Positions 10,201-62,700 of a stretch of DNA of 64,000 bases are shown here, piece after piece (positions within the stretch are counted from its first letter, which is position 1; the number at the start of each line of letters is the position of its first letter). The DNA comes from Owenia fusiformis. Its lineage: Eukaryota. Under the pieces are notes generated by a model. The model did no database searches, had not been told where the DNA came from, and saw only the letters and a list, made by a program, of their open reading frames with translations. The DNA lies in assembly GCA_903813345.2 (NCBI GenBank), contig CAIIXF020000001.1, forward strand, positions 1,674,001 through 1,738,000, written 5' to 3'. The translations under genes and the position numbers were made by a program.

Positions 10201-11995
10201 AAACTGATAATCATTGCCAGTGAGAGATCTCTCTTCTTACATCGTGCAGGTTATCACGTTAAACCATGATGAGTACGATCCTTTTCCTAATCTCAAGTTC
10301 CTTGAGCCCTGATTACCGTTTGTAAGATTAAAAGATTTGTATAAGCACAACAATTGCAAGCCTTTCGGGGGACTGCGGTGGACAATCTAAAGTTCGATGG
10401 TTCGAACCCAGCGTGCTCCGTGTGTTTATTCATAATATATGATTAAATTAATATATTTTATGTAACTTGTCCAATGCCTTACGATTGTTTTGAATTACGT
10501 CCAAAAATTAAGCTATTTATATTTCTTCAACATTTGTGTTTATGGTTTGCTAAATGATGTATTTCTGTCGGTTGAAAAGTGTAATGTAAATACAAGAGCA
10601 ATTATCTTTAGGAATGTTTTGCTGGTTGCTGATTCTTTCGGTTTAAATCAGCGTGTAAAAGTGGTACTTAAAGATATTTATAAATGCCAAATAATTGTAA
10701 TAATACTTATTAGTAATAATAGTACTAGGTTATGTTGGTGAAACACGCACTTTTTATTTCCAGATCCCTGGTATTCCACTGATTCCTGCGTGCAGCATGT
10801 TCATTAACACAGCCATGATGTTAAAGTTGTCCTATCTTACATGGATACGACTAGCAGTGTGGTTGGCAATAGGTAAAACACATACATATGTTCATAACAG
10901 TGCTATAATATTAAAGTTGTCCTATCTTACATGGATACGACTAGCAGTGTGGTTGGCAATAGGTAAAACACATACATATGTTCATAACAGTGCTATAATA
11001 TTAAAGTTGTCCTATCTTACATGGATACGACTAGCAGTGTGGTTCGCAATAGGTAAAACACATACATATGTTCATAACGGTGCTATAATATTAAAGTTGT
11101 CCTATCTTACATGGATACGACTGGCGGTATGGTTAGCAATAGGTAAAACACTATGTTCATAACAGTGCTATAATATTAAAGTTGTCCTATCTTATATGGA
11201 TACGACTGGCGATATGGTTAGCAATAGGGAAAGTTAATATATTCATAATACTGTTATGATGTTTAAGTTGTCATATCTTACATAAATACAACAGGTAACT
11301 TACAATTGTATGGTAAAGCGTACTAAAGTCATTTCCATGTAAGACTTTATGGACATTCTGATACTCATAGCATCTTTCTGTTTCACCTGAAACATCTCAG
11401 GGCTGAGAAGAAAATGAGATGTCATGGTTTATCATGGTGCTTTATGGATATGATTGACGATGTGGTTAGCATAATAATAGTTACGTTCAAAGAGATAGCG
11501 GTTGAAGTTGTTTTATCCTACATGGAAACATCTCATTTTAAAGCAATCGATTATATATGTCCATGAATTCTGCCAATTGGAATTGTGGCAAATCACCCAA
11601 TAAGAGGTTATCATACACAACCGTCCCGATAACTTGATTCGCAAGCTGCAAATTGAGATCTTTAGAATGATTTCCCATTAGACCATACTTTATCCATCCC
11701 GTCTAATCAATTATGTATGGTTTGCCTACCCAGCCATCATTATCGCTAATTTGTATTGTTATAATAATCATTATTTTCAGGTCTGGTAATATATTTTGCC
11801 TATGGTATCCACCACAGTAGTGAGAATAAGGCACTTTCCGAATACAGTCAGATCATCTCATATGCTGGCCCAAGCATGGACAGCGTATACAAGATGGAGG
11901 AAGACGCGAAGAAACAACAACCCGACGCCAAGGCTCCTCCACCAAAGGCTGCACCAGTTGAACTTCCACAAAGTTCTTCCAGCGACGAGGAGTAA
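7231..11995 (+). CDS. SLC7A4: Cationic amino acid transporter, SLC7A4 (CAT-4)-like, about 652 aa; coding exons 7231-8865, 10764-10872, 11781-11995
   Basis: APC-family motifs LKRCLGTVDLTLLGIGSMVGAGLYVLTG, LCYAEFGARVPKAGSAY, GFDAIAVAGEEAKDP and PRIVYAMASDGLLF. Exons 2-3 give the C-terminal IPGIPLIPACSMFIN...TWIRLAVWLAIG/LVIYFAYGIHHS. GT-AG junctions with matching phases (0, 1). Acceptor at 7183 lies upstream of the ATG. Symbol is the closest recalled paralog; SLC7A14 is not excluded. Confidence 0.92.
10797..11230 (+). repeat. 90-bp tandem array built from the 3' part of transporter exon 2 plus its splice donor (4 intact copies, 1 degenerate)
   Basis: AATAG|GTAAAACA recurs with exon-side ends at 10872, 10962, 11052 and 11142. 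Translation repeats LKLSYLTWIRLAVWLAIG. Confidence 0.95.
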
Positions 11996-13796
11996 TCTCA
12001 TATGGGTGGTGTTACACCCCCCCCCCCCTCATTAAGTTTAACAATCGGAGGTTCCCATTGGAATTTGGATGACATATCAAAGCTTGCTTATGTTTAAATA
12101 TTTTTATTTTTGGCTTTGATGTGTGATCTTAACTAAGGGTACTCATGGTTGTCCGACTGGTAGAGAGGAGTGTACTTGTGATGCTATATACGTCCACCGT
12201 TGTCCACGAGGTCACTTCTAGAAAATATATATAGTGGAATTATGATGAAATGGGATCAGTAGCAGACCTCTGATGACAACATTGTTAAAATAAAACACGA
12301 TTTAGAATTATGTTTACATGAAAAATCAAATAAACCTCTAATATGATGTAATTGATATAATGATATAAGTGTGTATATAAAATGATCTGCATATGATCAT
12401 GCAATGTTCATCTTCTGATAAGCCCAAAAGTGTTTCATATAAGTTTTTGAATGATGGAATGATTCAGACAAAAACATTGGTAGCCTGTGGTAGCCTTTTT
12501 GTTTTATAGAATGGTTTCTTTTTACGAGAAGATCATAATAATATCTAATATCAGTGATCAGTACCTTTATCATTGTTTCAACATGTGACGAATAGCTTTT
12601 ATTTATGAAGTGTACGTACTATATAAAAGTTATTGTTTGAAATGAAGATATTAATACTGGTGTACCATCTGTTCTTATAATCCAAATATTATATGCACAC
12701 TCCCTTCCATAAATGTGGAAATCAAATATAACTTGTTCCCCGGGCTTGTTCCCCGTTGTGTGACTGGACAGTGGACATTTTTTGTGAAACCCTGCTGTTG
12801 ATAAACCCATGAATATATTCAGAGGGAGAATTAGTCAAAATAAGGACAACTACTCTTGCCACACGGGCCTTTCCCATTTCTAATAAATCTAGTAACTGTA
12901 AAAACTGATTTGGTTAGTGAAACGGTTTATTTACCTTCGTTTAGCAGCAGGGTGACCCCATTGGATAATGTGTTAAAACCGTTTGTGTTTGACGTTCCTC
13001 AATTACAATTGGTCGACTCTGATGGACTATAAGCAAGTGGTCCAAAGAAGATTGCAAACGTTTTAGCGGATGTGTACAAAGATCCCTTTATTTTATTCAG
13101 GTCATATGAATTCATGAATAAGATGGATAAGATACGGGTTTAGATTCTTGAACATGTTCTATTTATGATTCCATTATTTTTATCTTTTAACAATGTTTTC
13201 TAATTTAATGTTTGGTAGAAAATGCAAGGTATATATAATATTGAGAATACCTTATTGGTGTACAGTCCAATGTAATTCAATGGGGCGGGAGATTTTCATG
13301 AATTATGGAAGGGATGTACATAAGCCAAATGTGCGTTTGATATACGATAATATATCTTTAATATAAGAATGTAATATAATGGTTGTTATGAATATATCAT
13401 AATGAATTCGAAGGTACAATCCAAAATTGAAAGTGCTGATTCCTTTTGTTTAATTATAATCATAATCTGGAATTAACCTGAGACTACATAAAATGTATAT
13501 GTTAGTCTCAGGATTAACATACTGTGTTTAATAACTTAATTACAAACAGCAGTCTTAATTCAAATTGAATCATGGAATTAAGATAGGCATCATGCAGGGT
13601 GACCTATTTTGAAGTACTTTATTTTGTTTTACTTTTAAAAGACACCATGTGTGCGTATCGATCCTTGATTGTGAAACCAATCGATGATTATTTTTTTAAA
13701 TAGAACAACCAAACGACGGTCAACAAGGGTCTTCGAATGGCATTATGCATATACTGTACATGTAAATGTGATGTTGATTTAGAGAAAATGGAATCG

Positions 13797-13802
13797 AATA
13801 AA
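13797..13802 (+). terminator. Candidate polyadenylation signal of the transporter gene
   Basis: AATAAA about 1.8 kb after the stop, followed by T/GT-rich sequence. An earlier AATAAA exists near 12289. Confidence 0.35.
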
Positions 13803-14611
13803 CATCAAATATACTATTTTGTGAATCATATAATTGTGATGAATTACTATAAAAGTGTATGAATATGATTGGTATGCGTGTAAATGTGATGAAATACAAT
13901 AATTGTACTTAAATCTACCTTTTTTGTTCTTTCAATATCTTGTTGGTATGAATACTACTTCATTGTAATTGTACGAGAAAGTATACAAAACTGGTTTTTA
14001 AATATCGAATTATGTTTATTCCAAGAACCGTTGACTCGTTTTAAAAGAACACACCACAACAGATATATTTGATCCACTAAGTTGTCAGTCAGTGCAGCTC
14101 AGCTCGATCAGTTCAACTTTATTTCCTCCAAATAAGTAAAGGCCCAGTAAAGCCATGTTGAGAACTTTGGAAAAACATTTCACTGCAGGGACCCCCACGA
14201 AACAAAAAAAAGTTACTGCACGGGGACCCCCACATTCCCGAATTCTGTGACCCCTTGCAACCTATTGATATTTATCTACGTTTGTCTGCAAATCATCACC
14301 GTTTTCTTAAAGATGTATCTGAGGAAACAAATTACGATCAAAAGAGCATTCTATTAAAATGTTAAAAACTTTTGCAATGAGTACATTACAACCTAGAGAG
14401 ACTATGTAAATAAAACAAAATCCTCCCATACGATAGACGCTCCCCTATGGGAGCATATTCCAAGCTAGTCTCTCAGGTTGTAATGTCCGGTGGCAGATTG
14501 CAGTACAAGTCCCTTAGCGCAGTTATTCTTCGGTAATGGCGTTGAGCAGACTGTCAATAGAGGAATAGATGGCGAAGAATCCGAGTGGGTTTACAATTAT
14601 ATGAATATACA

Positions 14612-14830
14612 CAGGGAGTGCCAAAATATTTTGCAACTTTTTTAGTAGGCTAGAAAAGTGTTTTTTTACAGAAACATTCCTTAAGCTAATACTGACTTCA
14701 ATTTTTTTGTCAGATGTTTGAATATTAATGGTAAATTGCTCATGTGTCCGAGATTTACCATTTTTCCTAGAAAATGTGACTTCATATGTCAATAGTCAAT
14801 ACTTGTTGCAAATTTTTTTGGCACACCCTG
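14612..14830. mobile_element. Tc1/mariner-like MITE
   Basis: TIRs CAGGGAGTGCCAAAATATTTTGCAAC / GTTGCAAATTTTTTTGGCACACCCTG, TA on the right flank. Confidence 0.75.
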
Positions 14831-14836
14831 TACATA

Positions 14837-15700
14837 GGGGAACATGGGGCAAAACGGCCCTCTGGCCGGGCAAAGTGGCCCATCGAAATATCTTTTGAAC
14901 TATAAAAAGATGGTTCTTCAAAAGTCACATAATCGAATTTTGAAATTTCTGCCACCTTCTCGACGTGGCCCATTTTTAACCAAGCAGCGTCTCGCTTTAA
15001 GTAAGAGGTAATTCTACTTTTCACCCTCTTTTTGTAAATTACCCTTCCAACGAGAATCTCTAAAAAATCCGGAAACAGTAGAATATCTTTTTGATTTAAC
15101 ATCTTACATAGAGTATGCACATTTTTTATTCTTTATTTGTAAAAATTTCGAGCTTCAAATATTAGGCAAATTAAAATGACGTCTATTTGAAAATTCACAT
15201 GTCTTTGGGGCAAAACGGCCCACACATGTTATAACATACAAAAATCTTATTGTGCAAGAACAATTGGTTTTCAAATATAACGATTTTAACATTTGGCTTC
15301 CTTATTTCCTTCCGACACATATCGAATGACTAGAATTATGGTAGGGGTTAAGAATACTTTATCTGTCAAAGGTTTGAACGTCTGGGATAATATGTGTGTG
15401 GACGAGTCTTGTAATTGATTAATTCTGGTTTTAAAATCCATGTAACAGAGGGTGGGCCCTTTTGCCCCACCCATGGGCCGTTTTGCCCCACTCTCGACAC
15501 TATTTTTGACCCGGGGATTTTTGACCATTGAAAAATCAAAGAAGATAGTCCTAGGAAAGTATAAAACACTCGAAAAATGTAAACCACAAACCATTGATAA
15601 AGGGGAACATCAAAGTGCGCGATGATTGACAGATAAGAAAATACCCCGTACAGAACAACTTTAAATTAAATTTTTAGGGCCGTTTTGCCCCGTGTTCCCT
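14837..15700. mobile_element. 864-bp non-autonomous DNA transposon with 25-bp TIRs and TA target duplication
   Basis: TA|GGGGAACATGGGGCAAAACGGCCCT ... AGGGCCGTTTTGCCCCGTGTTCCCT|TA, with internal copies of GGGGCAAAACGGCCC near 15206 and 15475. Confidence 0.85.
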
Positions 15701-16469
15701 TACGCAGATCTCCCATTTCGAACCTACATTATCTTTCAGAGAATTGGGCCCAAAATGTTCTTTAATAAGGATCTCGCCTGGTGTGTTGGGGTTTGTTCAA
15801 ACTTGGTACCCGCTGCCCGGTCGAAAAAACCGCCTGGACCCAAAAAAACGAAATCTGCGGGTATCGATATACAAAAACCGGATCCGCCAGGGGTTCACTC
15901 TGGCCAATTTTTGCTTTGGGCATCAACCATGGAAACCGGCCAATTAAATCTGAGAGGAAAAACACATGGAAAAAGTTGTTTCCTATCAATATAACAACTT
16001 CGTTTATTAATCCGTGTTGTCCATACAGCTGATTGCCGCTCTTCAGATTTGAAGATCGTGACGTCACTAGTTAAGAATAAAAAAGCGAAAGATCAGAGGT
16101 TTGTATTGCATTTACACCTTATTTAATTGCAATATTACTTCAAAAGATGGTGTATATTAAGGACATAACAATGAATTGATGTTCAGTTGTATTACCCTTC
16201 AATTTTGATCAAAATTTGAAGATATATCGCTCGAATAATCATATTTGTTTTTTAGTCTAATTTATTTTAGACAGGTGAGTGAGGACCCGTTTTATTTTTT
16301 ATTCATATGATTCAATTCAAATTCGTGTTCAAACTGCAACCAGGCTCCGGGTGACCCTGGCTCTTATTGGTTACAATGTTCCTAATTATTCGTTGCAACA
16401 ATAGGAGTTGGGACGTGCATCGACCTCAGGAGTCTGGTTCACAGTGAACAGAAGCATTTATTGGAGACC

Positions 16470-17342: not shown

Positions 17343-17361
17343 CATGTGATTTATTGACATA

Positions 17362-18395: not shown

Positions 18396-34230
<15,835 letters not shown>

Positions 34231-35377
34231 ATTTCACCAATGTTTGGTGGTAAAATGTATAGGGTTATATAAAACATAAGTGCTCTTACAGTACGTGCTT
34301 CTGATATGCTTCATCAGCAGTCTCACTTCTGCTTTCGGGAATTCAACTGAAGCAGATATGATGAGGAGTTACCCCAAGCAGTGTGGATCAGGCTCCACCA
34401 GCACGATACAGTGTAGCCCCACAAGATGATAAGTTGAAGACCATTCAGCAGATTCAGGCCTTATCTTTATAAGATTTCAAACTTTATAGTAAAAATGTTA
34501 AAACAGGGAAATACATTCATACAGAACCACTTGACTTTAAAGCTATAGATGCTATGGCTAGTTTGCAATGTAGATATAATGACGGGCATTTAATAGGGGT
34601 TGGATGAATTATCAATGCGTAAATTAATTTATTGACGAAAATGCTTGATTGACATTCTGATCCACCCCCTTTAGGTGTGACATATTGTCAATCATTCTGG
34701 AAGAAATATGAAGGAACCTTAAGGTAACAATAAAGACCCTTCACATAAATATCTGTACTTGCCTCAAAGAAATCATTCCTATATATTAACATGATATCAG
34801 TATTATGAGTGTATTAATTGTATTGTTTAAGCTTTGATCACCTTTGATTCGATCTTTAATCACTTGAATGTTTAATTTATTATAAGCCTCCTTCATGTAA
34901 ATGTATGTTTAAATGTTAAGTATTGAACATGTCTTGTATATATTGTAAAACTATAATCACTATTTATTTGAATGTTATTTATTAAGTTGAGTTGCCACAT
35001 TTTGCAATTCAGTTATTGACTTCTGATGCCAAACTTCTTCAGCAAATCATGTATATATCCAAACATGTTTCTAATCTGAACACCTCTCAGTGTCAACACT
35101 TCTTGGTCCCATTTTGGCATTCAGATTATACATATCTGATTCGTTGAATTTCACTATTTTTAATTTATAGTAGAATATGCAATTTATTTTCTGTCTGGCA
35201 TAATAGTTTCTAACCATTACAATTTTACAGTGGTGCAAACATGACATAATTTCATCATTATATTGAGCATATTAAGACATGTAAGAACAAAGGCTGCCAA
35301 TTTTAATACAAAAAGTTGTGTATTTTAGCTTTTTAGCTATGGGCGTGATTTTGTTGTTCAGTGACAAGAAAAAGCAT

Positions 35378-35383
35378 AATAAA
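35378..35383 (+). terminator. Candidate PHTF polyadenylation signal
   Basis: AATAAA about 1.15 kb after the stop, followed by T-rich sequence and just before the convergent gene's 3' end. Confidence 0.5.
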
Positions 35384-35854
35384 ATGAGAATCATAAATGC
35401 ATCTGATTTATGTTTTATGTAAGCTCATTGTGAATGAAGACTCATATAGATGGCACATCAGTAGTGCGATGCTCTTAACTTCCTGTTGAGCCAACGGTAT
35501 CTACGCCATCGTTTGACAATCCTCAAAGATAGGCTTGTCCACTAAAAGACAATTATGTTGTATTTGTGTGTGTGTGTCAATTTATTATGTCTTTTATTAT
35601 CCCATCATAAGCAGTAAATCAGATCTTAGTTGTTATATACAATATTATAAAGCTGTCCTCTTCATAAGGGTGTAGGTGTGATCGTAAAAGATAATTGGCT
35701 GCCATTTAGCTGTCTGCATCCTTAAAAATGTCACTCGTAAATCTTACTCTTTATGTACAGGATTTTAATCAGATAATGTACTTGGTAATTGTTAGCAGAA
35801 GAATAATATCCTTGGATTTCGAGAATGTTTTTCGAGAATCATGTCCGATGTGTC

Positions 35855-37755
35855 TCAGTAGCATGGCAGGTCACCGCCGGTACATGGGTCACCAGTTGCG
35901 TAGTCCGCGGGGACAGTTGTTCCTGGTTCGCACTCCATCGATTGTGGCATAAGCTTTGTCTTGGCACTATCAGCCCATACGCATTGGTAATATTTGCATC
36001 GATTGTATGGATCCACCATGAATTGACCCGCGTGGTCACACGTTCCAATCCTTGGTTGGTCTGAAAATAATTGCATTTGGAAGTTGTAAATGAATTGAAA
36101 TTATATATATTGCTGTTATAATCAATACAAAGGATTTTTTATGACTTCCCCAATCCCCATCCCCAGTTCAACAACCTTTGCAGTACATGTTTCATTTTCG
36201 ATATCATTGCTTAGTTTGTGCATGGACGTATATCAACATAATTTCGCGTATCGGGTGTTTTAAAATCAAAGACAATGCAGAGACCTGTTTGAAATAGTTC
36301 TTCCAATGGACTACCATGTTAAATCCATTTTCATTTATGATCACAATTACCCTTTGCATTCGTTTGACTTCACTTCTTAAAAGAGAGCTTCGTCTTCGTA
36401 GTTTAACTAGACTCTGCACGCAGGGTAGATCACAATTCAACTACTTTTTCATCAGCGTTTACACAAGACATCATGTTTCGAGATATATTACAAAATTCCT
36501 CTTACTTTCAATGATGCCGAACAGCTGGACCTCTTCGGGAGTTGATTGTGCACAACCGGCCCACTCAAGCATCTGAAGGCAATCGGCTTCATTGCTCGAG
36601 TACTGGCAATCGTTGGTGAAGTCCCATGTGATAGGCCTGCTGTACGTACTCAGACACCAGGCGTCTGTTCCTTTGGTCCAATCCGTTCTAGAGCCGCCCA
36701 CATTTATGTACCACATGTGCGTGGAGCCGAGCTGACAGGAGGCCTTGCCGTTTTCGGGAGGGTTGGAGGTGGAGAGAGGACATGTCTCGGGGTTGAGGGA
36801 GGTCTCCTTCAGGATACAATGGGAGTTGGTGAAGTAGTAACCATCTGGGCATTCCAACGCCGCTCCTAAAATGTTGAATATAAAATATTTGTACTTCTTC
36901 TTTTGTGATTATCCTGTTAGTTTGTGTCAGTCTTAACCATTTAGAATGGATCGGTTTTTATGTCCCCACCAGAAGTGATGACATATTATTTTTTGTGGAC
37001 GGCGGTTGGTGTTCGACGTCTGTAGCAAATGGCAGGTAGTGACATGTTAATGCCCTGTTTTGATGTTTTCATGCGATTTGATTTTCTACTTTATCTTGTT
37101 TTTTGTGTGAGCGTTTGACAATATTTATGTCTTACTCACCCTGTGCGGCGTATATCAACTGGGACACGGTCATCAGGGCTCCTACTAGGCTAGTCATCTT
37201 GAACATCTACAACATTAACATTGTCATCAATAGGTTTATCATATTATCTCATGAGAGATATTAATTCAAAGACATGATTTATCCTGTGGACCTTTAATTG
37301 CGTCGATGCAAAATTTAGTGTCATCCTCCTAAATATGCATTTTCATCACATTTATTATGAAATTGAATTAATTAAATGAAATCGTATGCATGATCTGTCA
37401 CGTAGGGTCATTGGAATTATATGCGTAAATAAAACACTTTACTCGCTAGCGTTTTTTGAATTGAGGTGATAAAAGATCTCCGACTATTTTGCATATATGG
37501 AACTTTATGTCCGCATCAGATTAGGGATATGTTCACGTCAACAATGAAGTACTAATGATAAGATGACTAGTTTCATTATTGCAGTCTGGGTTAATACATT
37601 TGAAATAAATGTAACATATTGAAATAAAAAAAACTACACACATAATGATGTCTATTGAACTAACAACGAATTAATATTGTGTAATTATAAAGATTCATTC
37701 CAGTAATTTGAAATCCTTTCGTTTTCTGAATGTTGAAAAAACTTCCACTTACCAT
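35855..37755 (-). CDS. Secreted Cys-rich protein, about 211 aa, with a C-terminal chitin-binding type-2 (CBM14/peritrophin-A)-like domain; exons 37755-37753, 37206-37140, 36865-36506, 36060-35855
   Basis: ATG|gtaagt first exon; signal-peptide-like MFKMTSLVGALMTVSQLIYAAQGAAL; 8-Cys middle exon; last exon C-x13-C-x4-C-x16-C-x15-C-x6-C with DPYNRCKYYQC. Phases 0, 1, 1 are consistent. Exons are GC-richer than the flanks; TATA box upstream and minus-strand AATAAA at 35581-35586. Confidence 0.85.
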
Positions 37756-39640: not shown

Positions 39641-42572
39641 ATGGTATGGGTTCGAAAGCCAAGGACGTACGTGTCCCCGGGTCAGCCAAGACTGCAGAAA
39701 AGGTAAGAGTATGTGAATTGGATATTGAAATGTATCATGGTTTGTCAACATTGTTGATTATTGTGTTAAATTGAGGATGGGTGAAAAAGTTCAACAAACA
39801 CAATACCTCAAACCTAGCATGAAGAAATAATAATCTCATTTCTTCATCCTAGCTCAAACCACCACTGTTGAGTAAAACCGATACCATAAACGCGGTCATA
39901 CTTGGGGGTACACATTGTGGGATCCACAGCCTTTACTATCCTTTTGGAATAGTTCAGACTAGATCTATCTACCCTTCCCCCACGAGTGTATGAGATCGTT
40001 GATCCACGTTGATGTGTGTTCGGTTTGGGAGGTGGTTTTACCCGGGCGTACCATGATATTTTTATATGTCTCTGGATAAACAATGAGTTCTTCAATAGTC
40101 ATATTTTAAACGATTTTTAAGTTTTTGAGTTTTTAATGAAATGATATTTGGATGATAAAATTGTTTTCAAAGTTTGCAAAGGGGTTTTCTACATTCGGCA
40201 TGTTGAGGTCGCATTGGTCTTCATAATCGAGATAAAAGTTTGTTTTCTTACCCCCATGACCTTTTTCAAACCTGATTTCGCTTTTTTAAAGAACGCTTTT
40301 TTAAAGAACGCACCATTCACCTTTTTAAAACTACAAAAGTCAAATTCCTTTCTGTATAAGAAATCAACCGACCAACCAGAATCAGTATCAAAGGATGTAT
40401 AGAAACGAAAGAAATTTACAACAAAGTTGCAAAGCTTTGTATAATAAACCTCGTAAAGCACTTGGGGCATGGTTCAGTCTTTGGAGGATTCAATTTTTGT
40501 AATATTAAGATTATTCAATCTCCCGTGCTGAATTGTAGATGTATTAATACACTCGTAGGCCTACATGTATGTCTTATAGATCTAACATTTGTCTAGTCAA
40601 AATGCCAGAATTGCAAAATTGTTTATCTTTGTTATTTCAACCTTCATCTTTGCGCAATTGAAATGCTCGTTCACTATAGAAGTAATCTACACTAAAAAAA
40701 TCAGTATTTTTCCACATTTAGATTATTACAGCCCTGTCTATATCATCATTCAATTTGGAACCAGATAGCGAATTATCATCCACAGTTTCACATATTTGAA
40801 ACTAATGTAATCTTTGACTAGACGAGTTTCACAGTACAAATACTATGAGAGCACTTAACTTAATACATCTAGGTAAGCATTAGCTAAGATTGAATAATCT
40901 TTTAAAACTTTAAAAATTGAACCCTTCAAAGACTGTATCACGCCCCACGTACGTAAGTCGTTGGTACGTTGGTGCGAGGTACGAGTTTTTTATACAAAGC
41001 CAAGTTGCAAACCATCCTTCCCAATAATGTCAACGGTTCGTGTTTTAAAACGGAAAACATCCGTTGTAAAACAGAATATATATGGATATACATGTAGTTA
41101 TCTAAATGGCATATACATGTATTTATTCAGCTTTGGGGTTTATTTTCAGATTGCCACAATCTCAGCAAGCAGCACGTCTACCTACTCAGCCACATAATCC
41201 AGTTCCTCATGCTCGGCGACAAATACCCAAAACTCACGATTATGTCAACATACGTCCACAGTCATATGATGCAACCAGGCAAAGACCTAATCCTGAAAAG
41301 TTACCAACTGCACCTAAGGTTCGTCCGAATCCTGAGACGAAGGACCATTATTTTGAAAAATGGACACGATTCAGAACGAAAATGAACAAAGGACTTATCG
41401 AAATGATACGCAATCCTAAACTAAAGAAACGCCTGGACAATGGTGCCGTTCCTTTCTTCCGCGTAGATAGTAGAACATGTCACTACGCTTTGGATCACGC
41501 TACACAAGAATATATAGAAGGCCGCAAAGTGTCGGCCAACCTCCCCGCTGAGACGTTCGTAGAATTTGGGATACCAAGAGCAAAGTTTGTTCGAAATTGG
41601 GACGGTTGGTCCGAACCCAAACCCAGGTCTCCAAGGTATATGACCAAGAGGGCTGAATCTTGGTCGGATAGACATATTAACAATCTAGAATCAGTAACCA
41701 AGAGTGAGTCGTGGTCGGATTTGAACAGCAACACTAGATATGGAAGACGATCAAGAGCCGAATCGACTCAACCAAGAATCTTAGAAAGGACCGATTGGGA
41801 TGAATATGGTAGTAGTGAAGATGACTTTGTATCTGTTCCGAAAGAGGATGATCATATTCGAGTAACGCAGTCACAAAGCTTTAGGTCGCCATATCCAAAG
41901 TACGGCTCGCTAATTAGGGAGCCCTCATTTGATCAAGTTGATCTTAATAGTCCTCCAATGAGTAACAGTGATTCTAAAGATGATGACATATCTAATGTTA
42001 ACGGAGCGCCAACAGACTTTGAAGCATTGTCTTTCTACCGTGCTACTGGCAAAAACGAGTTCCTTAAACCAAAGAAACGCCAGGCTCCTCTTCCTCCGAT
42101 AGCGCCACCTCCCCCACCTTTGCCACCTCTTCCCGAGTCATTGCCGCCCCTTCTATCGCCTATTTCTGGGGTAAAGGATTTATCCGATGTCTCCACAACA
42201 CTGAGAGATCGCAGTCGCTACACTGGAGATAGTTTAATCCCGGCATTCACGCGAAATAATCACGATGGGTCATTGGGAGGGAAGAGACCTTCTATAGATC
42301 TTGACTCAACAACCAGATTCAAGTTACGGAGTTGGAGCGGAGGGGTAAGCAACTCGTACACACGAGATCCAACGTCTTCATACAATAGAACAGAAGTCAC
42401 GGGTAATAAACGGGATACGACCCCTATGGAAAAACACCACGGTGATAATACGCCCAGGGTGTCTCAGAAATCCCTAGGGCCCGGTGACTTTAGGATACGT
42501 AATACGAATCCCACGTTGTATATGGTGGACGGGGATGAAAGCTCCGAGTCGGACACTGATATCCTTTATTAA
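39641..42572 (+). CDS. Uncharacterised, largely disordered Ser/Pro/Arg-rich protein, about 494 aa; exons 39641-39702 and 41150-42572
   Basis: 1.4-kb open, GC-elevated exon with acceptor tattttcag at 41149. The upstream exon MVWVRKPRTYVSPGQPRLQK ends in phase 2 (AG|gtaaga) and joins in frame. In-frame TAG at 39608 precedes the ATG. No domain recognised. Confidence 0.8.
40434..41000. mobile_element. TIR-bounded element in the orphan gene intron; right arm related to 19910-19996
   Basis: Degenerate inverted arms of about 90-110 bp (GCTTTGTATAATAAACCTCGTA / TACGAGTTTTTTATACAAAGC; AAGATTATTCAATCT / AGATTGAATAATCTT). AATTGAACCCTTCAAAGACTGTATCA is shared with 19916. Confidence 0.7.
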
Positions 42573-44121: not shown

Positions 44122-45676
44122 TTAACTGCAAGTTGTACTGATCCCTTGGTATAATCTTGATCTCATAGGCCACTTCTGAAAAAAATAATTACCCAAATCG
44201 TTTTTACAAATTACGCTTTCAGCATCTTTCTGGTCAATCTTTCACTCTTGACACTCTTGATCTACTTGTACGCGATTCAGTTTTGAAATTTTTCATATAT
44301 TGGTCGTTTCAACCTTGTACTAGGGATGTCAAAAATAAGCGAACTCACTAATTACCTCGGTTTGTACCCGTTTATGTTAAACAGATGCCTTTATGATGGT
44401 AAAAAACAAAATTTGATTATCAGAAATTGGGTAAATTGGTATATATATTGTATATGTATCATTCATAACATGAATGAAAACAATCCAGAAATAAAGTGAT
44501 CTAAGTCGACGATGCAATTTAAGTAGAAAGTACCCCAAAGCTTACTCCATTGAACGCTTTACAAAAACATCATCATTGAGAAACGTACACCAAAATGGGA
44601 AGGTTGCAAAAAATGGACGAAAGTCTAAGATTTCTAAACATTGTTTCATTTTTTACATGTTTTGGGCTCATAGCTGAATTCTAAAGATTTTTTACATTTA
44701 TCTATGGATTCTAAAGATTTCTACATTTATGTGTGTGAATTTATAATTTGGGGAATTTATACATTTTGTGCATCAATTCTTAAACATATCAAATCAATCA
44801 ATGGGCCCTTTATCATTCCAAATGCGATATTTGAAATGATTCATGATATCGTATCAAATGGTGAGGATTAAAACCATTGCATTAAAAGTAACTTTATTTT
44901 GTAACTTTATAGCACAAAACGGCAGTAGTAGATGCCCAACTGGGCGTAATAAAGGAATCATCCTTATCCAAATTGCATATTTTTTATGATCGAAATTGAA
45001 ATGCCAAAGGAATTCTTATTTTATGCAGATCTCCGTATTATAATTACATTGAATATTAAATATTAAAAATCAAACGTTAGCTTGATTTTTGAAAAACATT
45101 AACAAGAGATGTCATGAAAGTAAAAAAATACTAAATAAGACGCATTTGAAAAGCTGCCAGAGATTGACAAATCCTGTATATTGGGGTATTCAGTCTGTAT
45201 AGAGGTCTTACCTTTACTGGGTGGAGGTATTCCTTGGCGTGGTGACCTCCTGTTGTAGGTTGGCTGACACAACTGAGGTCCTCACTTTGTGATTCTTCCA
45301 ATGTCCGCATCAATTGAGAAATATAAGTCGTAGCAAGCACTAAAACGTCCAATTTTGATAGTTTAGTATCAGGAGGTACACACGGTAATGCACGTTGTAG
45401 TTCAAGAAATGCACTTCGTAAAGTTTGTACACGTGAGCGTTCTCTCGCAGCGTTGTTATCACCAAGTGATTGCCCCTCACTTTGGGTTTTATTGATTGAT
45501 TCAATATTCTGTCCAGTTGTCTTATCATCTTTTCGATTCTCTCGATTTCTTTTATTCGGGGCAGAATTAATAATATTACCTCTCTTGCGTTTGGGGTGCT
45601 TCACTGATGTATCAGTATAGAGGCTGGTGAATTCCAGTCCATTTGTCTTTGAGGATGTGTTCATTATATCAACCAT
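44122..45676 (-). CDS. TCF24: bHLH transcription factor of the TCF23/TCF24 family, about 172 aa; exons 45676-45212 and 44175-44122
   Basis: b[51 protein letters not shown]. The family C-terminal motif [15 protein letters not shown] is reconstituted across a phase-0 GT-AG intron. Confidence 0.92.
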
Positions 45677-45779
45677 TCTTGTCTCCCGGTACTCCGCTTA
45701 AAAGCGCAGGTCTGAGTCTGATGTGAGTTGGAATTTGCTGATTCCGATTGGTATTCTACTCAAATCAATGTAAACGCCC

Positions 45780-51544: not shown

Positions 51545-52039
51545 TTAAATGTTAAGATTATTGCAGAATGTTATAATTGGCTCTTTTGTCATATAGCACA
51601 ATGTCTTGAATAATGGTGATCCACTACAGACACAGTCTGTGTAGCGCCCACTATAAGTGTATCCTTGTTTTATAAAAAATTCAACTGAGCCGATAGCACT
51701 TTCAACATGAATTGGACGCCTCACAGTCTTCATCATGTCAGATTCTATGAAATTGAGCAACCACTTGCCATACCCAAGTCCTTGCCAATGGCCTTTGATA
51801 AATAGAAAACTAAGAAAATGATTATAATTTTCTTCGTTAGGGTCAGTTTGTGTTGGAAGAGCAATCGTATAACTGGCAGCTCCTATTAGTACTTTCTTTC
51901 CTGTTTCAAGTATATATTCATATGCGAAGACAACTTCACTCTCCTCAGGTGGGTTGTAAGTCTCCCCTGTAGTGTCTCTTGCCACTTGTCGGAATAAATG
52001 ATTGCTCTTGTTTCCCTTTGCCTTCACAAGGCTCAACAT
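51545..52039 (-). CDS. GNAT-family N-acetyltransferase-like protein, about 164 aa, single coding exon
   Basis: Acetyl-CoA-binding motif A (FLSFLFIKGHWQGLGYGKWLL) and motif B-like SVEFFIKQGY. Acceptor tctctttccag at 52047 sits just upstream of the ATG at 52039. Confidence 0.8.
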   Translation of the reverse strand: MLSLVKAKGNKSNHLFRQVARDTTGETYNPPEESEVVFAYEYILETGKKVLIGAASYTIALPTQTDPNEENYNHFLSFLFIKGHWQGLGYGKWLLNFIESDMMKTVRRPIHVESAIGSVEFFIKQGYTYSGRYTDCVCSGSPLFKTLCYMTKEPIITFCNNLNI

Positions 52040-52646
52040 CTTCAATCTGGAAAGAGACAAAATCGAAAGTTAAGCTCAAACTATTGTTTATGAATGATGT
52101 CTCTCACTAATCTAGTTGATGTGCCACTGTCTGCAGTGTCTGGTGTACATAATTAATTTCAACGAAAGCAACGAGATAAATAAGAAAAGGTCTTGGTAGA
52201 AAAACTTTTGAGAGAAATGTGTGACATTAACACATACTTCGAACCAAATGTGTGACATATATGGAATTCACGTGAAAAGTCAGAACGTAATGCTTTCGCT
52301 TTTTTTTTGTGTTCATTTTTTACTGTTTTGTTGATTAATAAAAATCAGATTTTTTAAACATCAACATAATGCGTGATTTGCATAACATTTTATCGGACAC
52401 GCAAAATTGATGCATGGTTTCAATTTTTCCAGCAAATGTGTGACAATCACGCCTAATGTGTGAGGGCAGCTACATCATGGGCTCTATATCAGGTGGTAGA
52501 GCCGATGGCTACATCGACATTGCATCCCTGTCTATATATATGCACCCATGGGTTTATACAATATTAGTAAACCTTCACCTACCTAATTTCAGGATATTAT
52601 TTTTGTTGCAACTTTGTAGGCATCATCATGTACTTGTAGATCTATA

Positions 52647-53666: not shown

Positions 53667-53712
53667 GTTGTCATGGATACCCGCTGTAAATGCACAAGAT
53701 TTGATGACGTCA
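53667..53712. promoter_or_regulatory. RFX X-box (GTTGTCATGGATAC, 53667-53680) and CRE palindrome (TGACGTCA, 53705-53712) upstream of MAPK15
   Basis: Motifs seen directly within 100 nt of the ATG at 53764. MAPK15 is a known cilium-associated kinase and RFX factors control ciliary genes. Confidence 0.7.
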
Positions 53713-53763
53713 GAGATTTATGTGTAAAATAAAATAACTCCAGTTGCAGAAAATTATTTCAAA

Positions 53764-56700
53764 ATGAGCTCAGATATAGAGGCTCATGTGACAAAGAAGT
53801 ATGAGATAAAGAAACGGCTAGGTAAAGGGGTAAGTAGAGAATACTTTTGGCCCAAATGTTTTACGATGAGCGTCAAAGTGCTGCGAAATGCACCGTTTTT
53901 CGAATGAGTAATTTCAAATCATCGGCATCGCAATATTTTTCAATTCTCAATTCGTGCCTGGAACCGACACTGTGGCTAATCAGGGGCGGGTCAGGGAATG
54001 AACAAGGGGGGGGGCCCAATAATTCCGGTCAGATAAAAAAAGTTACGAGCTTGCGCCCAAAAAAAAACCCAAAAGTGGGCCCAAATTTTGAAATTTTGAG
54101 GCCCATTTTCATCAAAATTTGGCCTAAAATAAAAAAATAAGGCCTTATAAGGCCCATTTATGACCATAAAGGCCCTTAAGCCCTTTTTTGGCCCCATTTT
54201 TTTATCTGGCCCCACCCAAGAGGGGGGGGGCAGGGCCCCAGAGGGACTCCATCAAACTTCGATATGTGGAGTTACTTTGTCGCAGGGCTACTTCAACCAT
54301 CGGGTTATTTCGACCATGCCCGATTCTTCAAATTTCATGGTTAGGCCAGCTTGGATTAGATCTCGCGCATTGGAGATTTTGATTTATTTTTTAAATTTTC
54401 TAAAACCAAACATGGTAGATTGCGTAGATTTAAATAATAATCCATAGTCGAAGATGAATTAACGTAGAAGTTTGACGCAGGGCCCTTAAAGCTTGGCTAA
54501 ATCTGTTTATGAACTCTGTGATAATAACTCAAACTCATTGTGGTCAGGGAACATGTATGTAACAACCCATGGGTGCCTCTGGGGAGCCAGATGCTGGCTC
54601 GAGCTATGTACATATTTCTTACCTCAATCGATTCTAGACACTAGCCTAAATGTTCTCTCAAAGCAAAAACAGTTTCAGCTGTCTCAAATTGCAGAGGTAT
54701 TTAATAAATCTTTGAATCAATCAATTTTGGGAATTATTTCTGAGTACATAACGAGCGTATAGAGTGAGGTTACCTCCAGTTTATTTGTATCTGGAAACTG
54801 GATGTAATCTCATTCTGTAATGCTCGTACTGCACATGGATATATTCTCTGAAGTTGATGGTGAACATTTTGAAATACTGGGCGATTTAAAAATTGAAATA
54901 TTGTCATCAAAATTTCAGGAAACCGCTAATCTGTTCAACTAGAAATTTTGTCATCAAAATTCCAGGAAAATCACTTATCAGTTCAATTTGAAATTTTTAC
55001 AGAGCAACAACAGACTGGTGCCAAGATCTGATCAGGTTTTGGGTATGCAGGCTAAATTATACGGTGGTCATTTTGAATTCTTTGATGAATTGGCCATTTT
55101 GAATTTTTCAACTTGCTTCAAATTGACCAATTTTTTTTGGAAAAAATCCTTTTGAAGTTCTCAGGTTCTGACTATTAAGATTTGACCTTTGTTTGGTCTT
55201 CAGTGCCCTCCGAAAGGTAAAAACATTCTTTGGGTCAGCTTAATTACAAAAGGCCAACCGAGGTCTGAAAAAGTGACATTTTCAAGGCCAAGGTCGAACT
55301 AGGTCACCGAAGATGTTGTTATCTAAGCTTCTCATAGTAAGACACTACAAATCGATTCTCCCAGAGATTTTGAATCTACATTCACTTCCGTTACATTTGT
55401 AATTCCATTCTGAAAGTGTTTCCGAAATTGATGATGGACATTTTGAACTTGATATTACATTGACTCACTGAACTGAAGGGAATATCTCAGCAAGTTGAGA
55501 TTACCAATGCTTCCATTACCAAGGGAGAAGTTAAAGACTTGCAAAACGTTGATGTCAGGTAATCGACTAAATTCTTAGAACTTCGAAGAGTGTTTTATGG
55601 TACATATCCTATAATATTCTTTCATATTTCAGGCATATGGTATAGTATGGAAGGCATTAGACAAAAGGACGGGGGAGGTGGTAGCATTGAAAAAAATATT
55701 TGATGCCTTCAGAAATCAAACAGATGCCCAGGTAAGCCCTTCTACATCAGATTATGTTCAGCATGTTATATTACTTTCATTGATTTTCTATGTACTTTAC
55801 AGTTTTGTTAATAGCTGTCACATTAGTTATATATTTAACAATATATTTATTATATAACAACGTAAATTACGTACATATGTTACTTTTAAAACAGACTTTA
55901 AACCAGATCAATTCATTTTATGTGACTTGCCAAGAGGCACTAGATCACTGATTTCACAGTTTCGGTATGGAATTCTACCTTTGCATATTGAAACTGGCAG
56001 ATTTGTAAATACCGATGTAAATGAGCGTTTTTGTAACATTTGTAAGTCGGGTGAAATTGAAGATGAAAAGCATTTTATTTTTGATTGTAGTGCATATAGG
56101 AAAAAAAGAAATGAGTTCTTTGAAAAATTGGAAATAGAGAGTTTGACTTTAAGTGACATTTTTAAAAGTAAAAGATACACTAAGATGTTTGGTCAGTATT
56201 TAATTGACATAATGCAGATCAGGAAAGACTTTATTTTTAAACAATAATTAGCTATTTTAAAATGTTCAAATGTGTCTCATAAGCCCAGATAGGGCTGGTT
56301 GTATGATATGATACAAGTGACACTTTAATAAAATAAATAAATAAATATTTAATTCTGTGAACATATTCTGACCTGTATATGTCATACATATACAATTGTG
56401 TAAAATAGGAAACTTCTTACGTGCAATTAGTGTGTTCACTGCCAAACATTTGTCTTTCACACTTAATTTGACTTAATGACTTAATGTCACTGTATTTTTA
56501 TTTTACAAGTTGCCAAAATAGTCTTAAGTAATGATAATGATAAAAAGTACGGTATTATATACTTTCTTCAAAATTGCCAACAATTTTATTGAAAGCACCT
56601 CATCGTGTAAGACATTCAAAAGTCCCCATGGTACAATTTCTTACTATTCTTATTTTTAGAGAACATTCCGAGAGATTATGTTTCTACAAGAATTTGGCGA

Positions 56701-59700
56701 TCACAATAACATTGTTAAACTTCACAATGTTATGAGAGCTGAAAATGACAAAGATATATACCTCGTATTTGAATTCATGGGTAAGCAATTCAAACAAAAT
56801 ATCATAATTATCTGCAAAATAAGACAGACTGCGCTGTCTTACTCCTGAACCTAGTCTAGCTACAAGCCCCTGTGACACCCTCCCCCTATTACACACACCT
56901 CTGTTGTTGAAGTAGATGGGGGGGGGTTTAGAGGCTTGAAGCAAGACTATTCTCAACCAGTTACCTCTTATAAGTGAGTCTGATAACAGATCTCAGAATA
57001 CACTAGTTTTCCAAATCAGTTTTGTCTCAAAAACAATATACGAGGGTTGATCCAAAAGTTCTGAACCGTTTGCTCTAAAAATCTTAAAACTTTATGAATA
57101 TTGTTCATATTTGGCCATTTTTATATGAACAATATTCATATTAAGATTTTTAGAGCAAACGGTTCGGAACTTTTGGATCAACCCTCATACAGTAGAATGT
57201 GTTAAATGATCGGTAACATTTTATTCTCTAGAAAAATTACACTATTGTGACATTAATATTATGTTTTTAACATTGATTTTCATATTTTTATAGACACAGA
57301 TCTGCACAATGTAATAAAGCGTGGAAATATTCTAAAGGATGTACACAAACGATATATTCTGTATCAGTTGTGCAAAGCAACTAAATATCTACACTCAGGA
57401 AATGTAATACACAGGGACCAAAAAGTAAGAAAAAATCTTAACTCCCAACATTTCCATTATAATAGAATATGAAAGGATTTTTATGAAAAAAACTTTGTTT
57501 CATCAATTAATGTGATTCACAATACAAAATTATTTAATAAGTGATCTTTGCATGTTATTAAAACTATTGACCTTTAAAAAGCTAACTATTTCCAGTTAGA
57601 ACCTACAACTTAGCTACTACATGTTACAATTAAAACATCCTTGGCCCAAGAGTAATTCATGAGCTGCTATGAAAGCAGTGAAGGATCGATCTTGAAGGAT
57701 GCAATTAAAATCATATTCAAATATCTTATTCTAGCCATCAAATATTCTACTGGATGGTGAGTGCTTTGTGAAACTATGTGACTTTGGTCTGGCTAGATCT
57801 CTCTCCCAGCTGGACATGGAGGAAGGAGGTGATCCTAACCTCACAGAATATGTAGCCACACGCTGGTACAGGGCTCCTGAAATACTGCTGGCTTCACACA
57901 AGTATGTAGAATTTTCTTGTACAATCATTCATTACTTTCTTGCTTAGTTTTAAATAACGAAGCTCTCTTTTAAGAAGCAAAGTCAAATGAATGGAGAGTA
58001 CTTTCTCACTTTACCATTGTATCTTTGTTCAATTGGCAATGGTAGTTTCTCACTTTACCATTGTATCTTTGTTCAATTGGCAATGGTAGTTTCTCACTTT
58101 ACCATTGTATCTTTGTTCAATTGGCAATGGTAGTTTCTCACTTTACTATTTTATCTTTGTTCAAATGGTAGTTTCTCACTTTACCATTGTATTTTTGTAC
58201 CAGGTATACCAAGGGTGTTGACATGTGGTCTGTGGGTTGTATTCTTGGTGAATTACTACTTGGAAAGCCACTATTTCCTGGTACATCAACTCTCAATCAA
58301 ATAGAAAGAATCATGTCAACAGTTCCTCGACCAACAAAAGAAGGTACAGTCTTGAATTGCTGAATCAAAATGTTTTGTCTGATTCAAAAATAATGTTTGA
58401 CTTGTTTGTACATCTCTTGTAGCTCATTACACATCATTTATCAATTTTGTTGATGTATCCTAGTTAATGTAATCTATGCTCAAAAGTCAATGCAATCCTA
58501 GTTTTAATAATGCAATCCTAGTTTTAATAATGCAATTCTAGTTTTATGTTACCAGGTCTATGTACACTTTATATTCCAAAATATTTAGAAATAATTCAAA
58601 TTCTCAAAAAGAGTAGATTTGTTTTTAATGTGCATGTATTATGGTTATTTTTTGTTCTTCAGATATAGAGAGTATTAATTCAACTTATGGTGCTTCAGTT
58701 CTGGATAAAGCAACGCGATGGTAAGTCGATAACATATTCATTTAAAAAGTAAACCATTCTTGTGAAAGTTGTGCATTGTCCACCAAATGGATAATTCAAT
58801 GATGCGTCCCTGGTGAAAAGAGATTGGTCTCAAAAGATGATCACTCCTCATACGATAAAAGTTGATGGATCAAATTATTGATGTATCCATAGCATGTAAT
58901 CACATGTATCAATTTCAATATATTAATAATGAATTTACTCCAGACTTGTTAATGAAATATCTAATGATTCTTTTATAAGAAGCAATGTTTGATTCAAAAT
59001 TGCAAAAAATCTTGTAGTTGTAAGTATCGATATATCATAATGAGTGGAGGTATAAACTTCATTTTAATAATGTTAAATTAAGTTGCTATGTGTAATAATG
59101 TTAAGAATACAACAATTTATTTCAGTCCACGTAAGAACTTAGAAGAGATGATTCCCGATGCACCAGATGATGCTATAGATATGTTAAAGAAACTGCTGCA
59201 TTTTAATCCTGGGAAACGCATGACAGCAGATGAGGCCCTTAGACACCCTTACCTATCTAGGTACACAGCTACAGTAAAACCTTTCCAAGTGGAACACATT
59301 TAGTACCTCTAAAAAGTGTTCCACTTGGGAGCTGTTCCACTTATAGAGGTTCATTTAACATTAAGTCATTTGGCATTGGGTCTCTAAAAAGTGATCCACT
59401 TCTATAGGTGTTCCACTTGACAGGTTTCGCTGTAATTGATACTAACTTATGCACTGTTATTATACAAATAGTGACTGCCATTGAGGGCAATAGTATACAA
59501 ATAGTGACTGCCATTTAGGGAAATAGTGCAAAATATTTTCCTCAAGGGTATATCCTGTCCAATGTCAGTGGACAGGATATTCCCGAGAGGAAAATTTTTA
59601 CACTATTTCCCGAAAATGTGGCAGTCACTATTTGTTTTATTATATACCTGATAAGTACTCTGTAAACAAAAACAAAATGAGAAGTCTTTTCATTTCAATA

Positions 59701-62700
59701 TCAAATGTTCACAGGTTCTTATTGGCATTTAAAGGCATTTTACCTTTCAACTCCTATAATCTCAGATTTGGGGGAAGATAAAACGTACTATTGACTGGTC
59801 ACATGACCTAACTGGTGATAAGTACAATTCATCTTCCCTGAAAGCAGGGATTTAGGACTTTCCAGGGAATTAGTTCATCTATTCCATGTCATGTGACCAT
59901 GAATAAGCCAATGAGCATCTAGAATACATTTGAGGTATATAATAATGTAAATTATTTCCCCGAGGGAATATCCTCTACAATGTACTATTCCCGAAGCCGC
60001 AGGCTGAGGGAATAGTACATTGTAGAGGATATTCCCAAGGGGAAATCATTTACACTATTGCTCGAAATTAGACAGTCACTATTTGTTTTATTATATACCC
60101 TATACTGACTCTTTTCCCGTTTCCTCTGCGAAGGCCAAAAAGGCTTAGAAAGCCCCCTCCCCGGGTCCATTGTTAGCACTATAAGCTGTGACGTCATCAG
60201 GTGCTCAACAGAAATTTTTGCCTCTGAGACTCTCACTTGACAAATTCAATTGCGTTTAACACGCGGAATAGTTTATCATAACACTTGAAATTACACAGAC
60301 GTATTGAGCTTAGGGAACTTTATACACGTTGCTTATATTGTATCGTTCACGCACGTCTGTCATGGTGAACGGAGTTGATTTGTGTTTGTGCTCATCCTCC
60401 ATTTTTCTGTTTTTCGTCTGCGCAGTGATGATGAGCAGACGTTTCCAAGGGTAATAGAACTTGCAATTGTGACGTCAGCGGGCAATAGTTCAAATGTATA
60501 TTCCCGCTGACGTCACATTTGAGGGAATATAACTTTCCAAGGGAAATAGTAAATCTATTTCGGAACACGTGACTAGGTATTGACCAATCAGGATTAGTGT
60601 TACATATTGGGTATATAATAATATTATTTATTTGATGATATTTGAGATACATAGTGTTTCAAATAGAATAGGAATTCACATGACAGATTGATTACTGCTC
60701 TGTTGACAGGTTTCACAATCCAGCTGAGGAACTTGGTATAGGACGTGATGTGAAACCTCCTCTCAGCGATGACATACAACTCTCTGTTAATGAATATAGA
60801 GAAAAACTTTATGAAGTGAGTCCATTTTAACATACTTAAGAGTTGACACTATCAATTTTCATCCTTCTGAGGTTTTAGCTCAAATAAACTATATAAGAAA
60901 GTAGATACCATTTTCTGGTCCATAATCATCAATCTCTCAAAATGCATTCATTTTTTAAATATGATATCTTGCATTTTATATTTTGCATTGTTAGAAAGGA
61001 TAGGTATCGATATGGTGAATTGAATTCAACAATGTTTTTCTCTTAAACCAATTATTGAAAACATTCTGTAAAAAACACAGTATTTTATGTAATGTTGACT
61101 GATTGACAACAATTTAATGTGAAAATTATTTAGAGATATTTTATATAACTGTTTTTGTTAATGTTTTTTATTTTATATAACTGTTAACCTTTTTTGTTTT
61201 TTAGTGCAATTGTTTTTGCTCCTTTCTACCAATTCTTGAAAATGAAATAAAATGTCTTTCCGGAACTTGTTGGAACAAAATAGCATATATGTTTTTAGAC
61301 CTCTCAATATTATAGTTATACAAAGGAATTTTTGGTTGATTTTAAAAAAGTATTCAAAAAATTAAATCAAAATCCCCCAAAATAGATAAAAATCAAGATA
61401 AACCTTTTATTTCATTAACAAGATACTTTTTTAAAATCAACCAAAATTTCCTTTGTACAATTACAATATTGAGAGACCTAAACATGTTGTGTTTATGTCG
61501 TTTTGTTCCAATGAAAACATGATACCAAGAACAATGACAGGTGTCTGCTGTCTAAAACAATATAGATGAAAGTATATATATATTTTTCAAATTATATTGT
61601 TGCCATTCAAAAGATGACCATTAAATTGACGATGTGTTAAATTTTTAGATTTTTTTATGACTGGTTTAAGCTACAGTGTTCAAAAAGTTCACTATATCGG
61701 TACCACTCCTTTTTTAAAAATATTTATCCCCCATCTTGTTCATTACTAATGCTGCCACCTGTTATTAGCCAACGGGAGAGACAGAAATATTCAAATCTCC
61801 ATCTGTAGACTAGTCCATTGTTATACATTTTAGATGATTATTATGCATCCATAGACTAGTCGATTGTTATACATTTTAGATGATTATGCATCCATAGACT
61901 AGTCGATTGTTATACATTTTAGATGATTATGCATCCGTAGACTAGTCTATTGTTATACATTTTAGATGATTATGGAAAAGAAGTTAGAGCGTCGTAGAAA
62001 AAGAAAAGAGGACCGGTTACAAAAAGTAGCAACAAATGATTCCGATAAAGAACAATCAATGCCTGCCCAAGCAGTCACTCATAATGGGCACAATGGCCAG
62101 GCATCACCAGCGTCAAAGAAAGAGCGAAGTATGAATGGTGAACAACAACAAAATGATAAACTGTTCTATGGTAAGAAAGGCTAAGGCACCGATGTCATAA
62201 TCCTATATAATTAGACTATTAGATACCATGATTAATGCACATGAACAAATAGAAATGTGGGTGCCTCATAAGGTCTTAGAACTTACTGGTTAATACATGT
62301 TATTTTAAAACCAGATTAGACAACTAGAGCAGTTATACTATTTCATATACATCTTGAATAAGTTGGCCTCCATTATAACTGAATGACTGAGCCTCTAAGA
62401 CTGCATCACTTACAGTATGTCACTCAACCTTGTTCATATTTATTGCCTTATTTATTTATTTATTATTGTATTTAATATTGTATACTAAATCTCTTAAATG
62501 TTGTACTTGTAGGTGTTGCATTTGGCCGTACGACCAATCAGCCACCACCTCATCATCATCAACGTCGTCCTAGCTCTGGGTTGCCACGACAACGAAGTCT
62601 TGAGAACATCAACGCAACTAATAATTTACAAAATGTAAGTTTTCCAAATCACTGCTTCAAACTCATGCTGAAACTGTAATTAAGAAACCAAGCAAGACTA

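Follow-up and report, generated by a model that had tools for sequence, protein, structure and literature searches.

Tandem repeats whose units span an exon-intron boundary have been described in amphioxus under the name "mirage", with cases in Adh3, troponin C, the globins BflGb6 and BflGb9, and PGBD5 (PMC3087553, PMC3902484). Mirages are reported as not disturbing splicing, and a model of intron gain has already been proposed for them. Here, we describe three tandem arrays in a 64,000-nucleotide stretch of the genome of Owenia fusiformis (contig C1, 1.67-1.74 Mb, about 1.7 Mb from the start of C1; hereafter the window). Two of them are mirages: a 90-bp array at a donor of an SLC7A4/CAT4-like cationic amino acid transporter gene and a 43-bp array at an acceptor of a MAPK15-like gene, which also holds the third, a 44-bp array. 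An initial annotation of the window had proposed an undescribed system, which is not supported because the class is already named and described; the Owenia arrays are of a known repeat kind found in a new lineage, and nothing indicates a dedicated system or a function. The genome of this species has 26,966 genes and 43% repeats (10.1101/2022.02.05.479245).

Related arrangements are known from other organisms. In human F7, the first unit of a 37-bp variable number tandem repeat (VNTR) in intron 7 spans the boundary, identical pseudo-donors downstream are silent, and the most upstream donor is chosen (PMC1557585). A minigene with duplicated 3' sites showed a preference for the distal exon having a donor and enhancers (PMC1450099). 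Internal tandem duplication including splice signals is also the basis of the Rogers model of intron gain (PMC4974935), and tandem repeats in plants and green algae are biased toward intron ends (PMC3887541). A literature search, with most subscription papers outside its reach, found neither a report of Owenia or annelid mirages nor a genome-wide junction-enrichment test for boundary-spanning units.

Tandem Repeats Finder (TRF) returned 44 rows for the window, among them the three arrays, which have a head-to-tail, minisatellite-like structure with periods of 90, 44 and 43 bp and 3.9-5.5 copies (Table 1). Searches of the 499.5-Mb Owenia genome with each repeat unit gave matches at its own locus only, the counts being lower bounds. 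The three arrays are real and single-locus, and a dispersed satellite or transposon-borne repeat was rejected on the same searches. Intron gain by tandem duplication was also rejected, since the gene models require no intron within any of the three; unlike in the Rogers model, existing introns only lengthen.

The initial annotation had placed all three arrays exactly on exon-intron boundaries, each multiplying a functional splice signal. This is borne out for the 90-bp and 43-bp arrays, which span the boundary with 76 nt and 9 nt of exon in the terminal copy and carry three decoy GT and three decoy AG sites, respectively, with scores equal to those of the true sites. Both have the defining structure of mirage minisatellites. 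The 44-bp array leaves 5 nt between its end and the exon; its units share a branch-like word and a pyrimidine tract, the AG of the true acceptor is not copied, and the array is not classed as a mirage because it does not span the boundary. TRF recovered all three arrays, with the 90-bp array running to 11283 instead of the earlier end at 11230 and the 44-bp array at 57998-58198. Two other statements stood as made, namely that the canonical exons are left intact (the CAT4 model is identical to the annotated protein P0001, and the MAPK15-like frame is open over 455 codons) and that growth is into the intron only, as the one-sided arrays show. Fourteen other arrays in the window were checked, and all of them are more than 20 nt away from any modelled junction.

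The large open reading frame (ORF) at 7.2-8.9 kb has 100% identity to a 652-residue cationic amino acid transporter that is assigned to Owenia fusiformis at NCBI, and the CAT4 coding sequence matches Pfam AA_permease_C. The CAT4 array sets in 76 nt inside exon 10764-10872, its first unit combining the final 76 nt of exon 2 with 15 nt of the intron, with the GT copied. The true donor GT at 10873 is weak (score 1.9 vs a sample median of 4.5), and its score is shared by the decoy donors at 10963, 11053 and 11143. All three are in frame and stop-free, and their use would add 30, 60 or 90 residues, giving products of 682, 712 and 742 residues. Copy 5 has lost its donor; at 11295, in the old sixth copy, there is a stronger donor that is out of frame. 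Changes common to copies 2-5 are missing from the exon copy (copy 1), a deletion has removed 5 nt from copy 4, and decay is evident in copy 6; the inner copies are homogenised with the boundary copies excluded, as in mirages. The annotated protein uses the first donor, and an insertion at the junction was found in none of the 66 relatives that cover it (119 relatives examined). The boundary span of the first unit and the downstream donor copies match the human F7 VNTR.

The second gene carries TEY and HRDQKPSN motifs, and its best PDB match is 6v6a, a MAP kinase; a PDB search using exon 9 gave no match. From these motifs, we take the gene at 53764-62757 to be probably MAPK15. A probable 15-nt in-frame microexon of this gene lies at 62743-62757 (+). 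In the 43-bp unit, about 34 nt come from the end of the intron and 9 nt from exon 10 (61966-62170), and the array ends 9 nt inside this exon with the AG copied. Decoy AGs end at 61833, 61879 and 61922 and share a score of 4.5 with the true AG, which ends at 61965. From each decoy, a stop is reached in 5-6 codons, so that the full protein comes from the last AG only. The 44-bp array ends 5 nt upstream of exon 6 (58204-58343) and repeats the word CTCAC (58005, 58049, 58093, 58137 and 58175), presumably a branch point by its consensus, together with the pyrimidine tract. Within 57950-58215 only the true AG scores above zero as an acceptor, the AGs in the 44-bp units all failing.

A background rate was obtained from dynein heavy-chain genes, covering 990 kb over 16 loci (one gene family, 0.2% of the genome). 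Introns came from a spliced protein-to-genome aligner with reference proteins and are homology models, not RNA-checked; 731 had well-aligned flanks and 730 were kept after dropping one false intron, with a median length of 336 nt. Arrays with a period of at least 12 and a score of at least 50 were included, and were called spanning with at least 5 exon bases and abutting within 15 nt. One array was at first counted twice, through a false 100-nt intron that the aligner had set inside a duplication; the row was removed and the donor of the intron reset. Among 208 arrays, 25 are spanning (14 acceptor, 11 donor; 77-99% matches across loci), 21 abutting and 162 interior. The prevalence of spanning arrays is 25/730 introns, or 3.4% (95% confidence interval 2.2-5.0). 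Junction-spanning arrays are common in Owenia fusiformis, and the lineage-wide pattern that had been suspected from the window is supported.

At the measured rate, 35 introns are expected to hold 1.2 spanning arrays (P = 0.34 for two or more) and 1.5 spanning and abutting arrays together (P = 0.20 for three or more). By the exon models, the window has about 33-36 introns, in agreement with the earlier count of about 35, and the two spanning arrays found there are therefore ordinary. The claim that the window holds more than chance would produce does not follow from the window itself; an excess is seen in the larger sample, at periods of 30-150 bp (see below).

The Owenia mirages resemble those of amphioxus in having boundary-spanning tandem units at either exon end, in carrying the AG or GT signals and in leaving the boundary copies outside homogenisation; normal splicing is apparently kept in amphioxus and may be kept in Owenia, where the annotated CAT4 protein uses the first donor. 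They differ in that Owenia is an annelid (Spiralia), in that the window includes the 44-bp array without boundary spanning, and in that the amphioxus reports, in their accessible portions, are single-gene cases without a background rate, whereas prevalence and excess in Owenia come from 730 introns. The F7 VNTR is on the donor side only and was tested in minigenes, whereas the Owenia arrays lie on both sides and are known from sequence.

Other observations were made at the dynein loci. One gene at C4:3075001-3145000 has nine spanning arrays in 61 introns, one of which is 18 copies of 118 bp. A 100-bp donor-type duplication on the minus strand of C11 at about 25.292 Mb (L021, about 7400-7600) is where the aligner put a frame-preserving 100-nt intron between copies; the layout is the one that intron gain by duplication would have, and nothing indicates that the intron is used. 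At C9:7081392-7088707, three open exons match one and the same stretch of the dynein AAA_6 domain (profile about 56-164); these exons are tandem duplicates and may be mutually exclusive.

For the null expectation at junctions, each array was collapsed to its founder and uniformly re-placed with purely exonic places excluded, two founder lengths bracketing the result. About a dozen subsets were tested in each analysis, of which only the 30-150 bp range, taken from the initial annotation, was preset; the young, non-dispersed and end-proximal splits are post hoc, and the P values follow one extension of the data (475 to 730 introns). The comparison of TRF arrays with the intronic background, which the initial annotation had proposed, gave no excess over all periods (25 spanning vs 21.2-25.5 expected, 0.98-1.18-fold) and an excess at 30-150 bp, with 25/74 spanning vs 12.6-15.2 expected (1.65-2.0-fold, P 0.0035-0.0001; the within-gene null is similar). 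In this range, the lack of enrichment at junctions that would have refuted the initial annotation was not observed. When simulated arrays were re-inserted and TRF was re-run, 12.6 were expected vs 25 (P = 0.0002), and the result was stable to the overlap threshold. Units of 12-29 bp show a deficit (0/125 spanning vs 4.9 expected, P = 0.006), and those longer than 150 bp gave 0/9 vs 3.8 expected. Abutting arrays number 21 vs 11.8 expected (P = 0.008), and the zone 16-60 nt from junctions has no excess (23 vs 25.6). The abutting arrays recall the plant and algal repeats in their non-random position near junctions; the top motifs of that study, however, are mostly short repeats, placed by bins of relative intron length, and it does not deal with units that cross a boundary.

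These values are a first estimate, limited to one gene family, of about 3% prevalence, an approximately two-fold excess at 30-150 bp and a deficit of shorter units. Array density and short introns suffice to predict 12.6-15.2 of the 25 spanning arrays, at least half of them. Tiny introns as an explanation of everything were rejected, since they account for 50-60% of cases in the collapsed-length and same-intron nulls. What is left is a modest excess, which may come from anchored arrays surviving longer or from arrays being born more often at exon edges.

The reading that we prefer, with a probability of about 0.57, is that the arrays are mirage-type minisatellites born at their loci and tolerated as by-products, with no dedicated system. 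It starts from the local origin, one-sided growth, intact exons, prevalence and size-dependent pattern observed here, and from introns that are short and rich in locally born tandem arrays. Ordinary tandem duplication through slippage, break repair or unequal exchange would often catch an exon edge, and the caught unit would then be amplified and homogenised. Selection would remove duplications within exons as well as short ones (<30 nt) that place a rival site near the real one. Longer duplications would survive, with splicing picking the copy that adjoins the intact exon, that is the first donor or the last acceptor; exon definition would be the general rule behind acceptor choice. Arrays would grow into the intron only because the copy beside the intact exon is the one used in splicing. 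The exon-held copy would be shielded from substitution and deletion, so that boundary arrays stay recognisable longer. In part this can be seen in the divergence from the true unit, since mismatches are half as frequent in exon-derived parts (181/5506, 3.3%) as in intron-derived parts (231/3810, 6.1%), as expected if the true copy is anchored. When the slower divergence of exon-anchored copies is weighted for, the 30-150 bp excess falls to 1.3-1.5-fold (P 0.07-0.01). Such shielding, together with a heavier array load near chromosome ends, would explain much of the two-fold excess, and the decoys would be passengers. Further support comes from the lack of an excess over all periods, of a frame bias and of a tie between breakpoints and splice sites, from the deficit of 12-29 bp units, from the first donor used in annotated CAT4 and the last AG required in MAPK15, and from the silent precedents in amphioxus and human F7.

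A mutational bias with the same neutral fate is possible, though we do not favour it: at exon edges, duplications of 30-150 bp would arise or expand 2-3 times more often, and the effect would be greatest close to chromosome ends. It could come from meiotic break repair or gene conversion with a preference for GC-richer DNA that contains exons, or from flap-type errors of replication where nucleosomes are positioned on exons. The excess in the TRF re-insertion simulation argues for such a bias, as does its persistence under the within-gene null, under the same-intron null (before the double count was removed) and in short introns. The greater strength of the excess in young arrays, where it outlasts the anchoring weight, also favours a birth bias. 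Position along the chromosome points the same way. Two loci less than 4 Mb from a chromosome end hold 12 spanning arrays in 86 introns vs 13 in 644 at the other 14 loci, the density of 30-150 bp arrays is lower the farther a locus lies from its chromosome end (rho -0.71, P = 0.002), and the window is itself close to the start of C1. Against a birth bias, the end-proximal split was made post hoc and depends on two loci, and the 14 other loci pooled give 13/54 vs 8.7-10.5 expected (1.2-1.5-fold, not significant); the 30-150 bp excess is driven largely by the two loci near chromosome ends. The gene-level bootstrap intervals for the ratio are 0.98-2.3 with the conservative null and 1.19-2.7 with the other. 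Locus C4 supplies 9 of the 25 spanning arrays, leaving 16/57 vs 9.2-11.2 expected without it (P 0.014-0.07), and the first sample of 475 introns was not significant (14/51 vs 10.1, P = 0.11). A birth bias also has to face the absence of an excess at 16-60 nt from junctions, and protection of arrays from deletion could supply the rest of the excess.

Several results weigh against tolerated, locally born by-products as a full account. Young arrays (at least 90% matches) are spanning in 20/41 cases vs 7.1-8.9 expected (2.3-2.8-fold), older arrays are not enriched (5/33 vs 5.1-6.3), and persistence alone predicts no such age trend; the young-array excess is still 1.8-2.1-fold after the anchoring weight. 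The two end-proximal loci have a 2.4-2.9-fold enrichment within their own group. The short-unit deficit is weaker at stricter exon overlap (P = 0.03 at 8 nt and 0.13 at 12 nt). Finally, when reads from 4 of 24 runs (three RNA, one DNA) were mapped on CAT4, depth over exon 2 and the array was zero in all four, and the decoys are presumed to be silent.

The DNA run has zero depth across 10056-11201, which would be in keeping with arrays that are assembly artefacts. We regard this as very improbable, since the CAT4 copies carry ordered and shared differences, including the changes in copies 2-5, the 5-nt deletion in copy 4 and the decayed copy 6, and since the match levels of spanning arrays vary between loci over the range given above.

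A role of the arrays as alternative or decoy splice sites, under selection or otherwise exploited, had been suggested by the initial annotation and is also improbable. Examples would be 30-residue membrane segments in CAT4 or tuning of MAPK15 by nonsense-mediated decay. The in-frame, stop-free decoys and the weak true donor of CAT4 speak for it, as do the decoys at large: among 115 scored, from 24 of the 25 spanning arrays, 113 still have GT or AG, and 80 equal or exceed the true site in score or fall short of it by no more than 0.5. However, intact sites are expected in young arrays, with 4/230 mismatches at the dinucleotide vs 3.3% in exon-derived sequence, and decoy GT/AG are neither clearly protected nor destroyed. 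The periods of the 25 spanning arrays show no frame bias (8, 10 and 7 with remainders of 0, 1 and 2 modulo 3), and frame selection was rejected. The CAT4 insert is missing from the annotated protein and the 66 relatives, every MAPK15 decoy yields a stop, and according to the amphioxus papers mirages give no aberrant mRNA (PMC3087553, PMC3902484). With decoys intact and no frame bias, nothing points to selected decoys or isoforms. Frequent decoy use should favour in-frame units or broken decoys, and the sequences suggest that the decoys are young, seldom-used passengers. The exon share of the unit ranges from 0.17 to 0.93 (Kolmogorov-Smirnov test against uniform, P = 0.14); the splice site can lie anywhere in the unit, so that breakpoints are independent of it, and breakpoints tied to the splice site were rejected.

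The three arrays are ordinary for a named class, and the added value lies in the rate of about 3% of sampled introns. At an assumed 150-200 thousand introns, nature would have made several thousand decoy-site experiments, in a species for which RNA data and a chromosome-scale genome exist. Testable questions include the birth rate at exon edges and the distance at which a perfect rival splice site is ignored, apparently about 30 nt. Such arrays can also mislead gene prediction, as the false intron placed inside one of them illustrates. A stronger and more doubtful proposal is that exon edges have 2-3 times the rate of birth or amplification of 30-150 bp duplications, highest near chromosome ends, while units below 30 bp are purged, in Owenia and perhaps in other marine invertebrates with compact introns. 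If such a birth bias were true, thousands of introns would have perfect but silent decoy sites at both ends, an unmeasured mutational bias would be tied to gene structure, and there would be a genome-wide natural test of position alone choosing the real splice site, acceptor side included.

Table 1. Features of the window, in window coordinates
Feature	Position	Strand	Basis or remark
SLC7A4/CAT4-like cationic amino acid transporter coding sequence	exons 7231-8865, 10764-10872, 11781-11995	+	joined translation identical to annotated P0001
90-bp donor-type mirage	10797-11283	+	TRF period 90, 5.5 copies, 91% matches; single locus
Probable older, decayed relic of the CAT4 exon-edge unit (weak)	11400-11540	+	partial alignment; overlaps dispersed repeat at ~11354-11436; piles of partly fitting reads
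Cysteine-rich multi-exon gene, probably secreted	34326-37206	-	no Pfam match
488-aa ORF	41106-42569	+	no Pfam match
bHLH gene	45134-45697	-	Pfam
GNAT acetyltransferase	51548-52069	-	Pfam
MAPK15 (ERK7/8)-like gene, 12 coding exons in window, continues past window	53764-62757	+	open 455-codon model
44-bp intronic array, abuts acceptor without spanning	57998-58198	+	TRF period 44, 4.7 copies, 92% matches; single locus
43-bp acceptor-type mirage	61806-61974	+	TRF period 43, 3.9 copies, 95% matches; single locus

Short dispersed repeats in the CAT4 introns (11354-11436 and 9774-10007) attract hundreds of partly fitting DNA and RNA reads. In DNA run X24, nearly all reads have a differing letter at many coding positions in window 7400-8310 and 11820-11890, which suggests that the run comes from a divergent population, or from a cryptic relative that carries the name of this species. 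A PHTF-like gene with about 16 coding exons lies at 18823-34224 (+; Pfam PHTF1-2_N, ab initio model), and an AATAC array starts 21 nt past its donor at 30686. The introns of this gene contain two related 135-bp satellite blocks called by TRF (23394-23938 and 27939-28845), each preceded by a TCCG microsatellite, which are probably a dispersed element.

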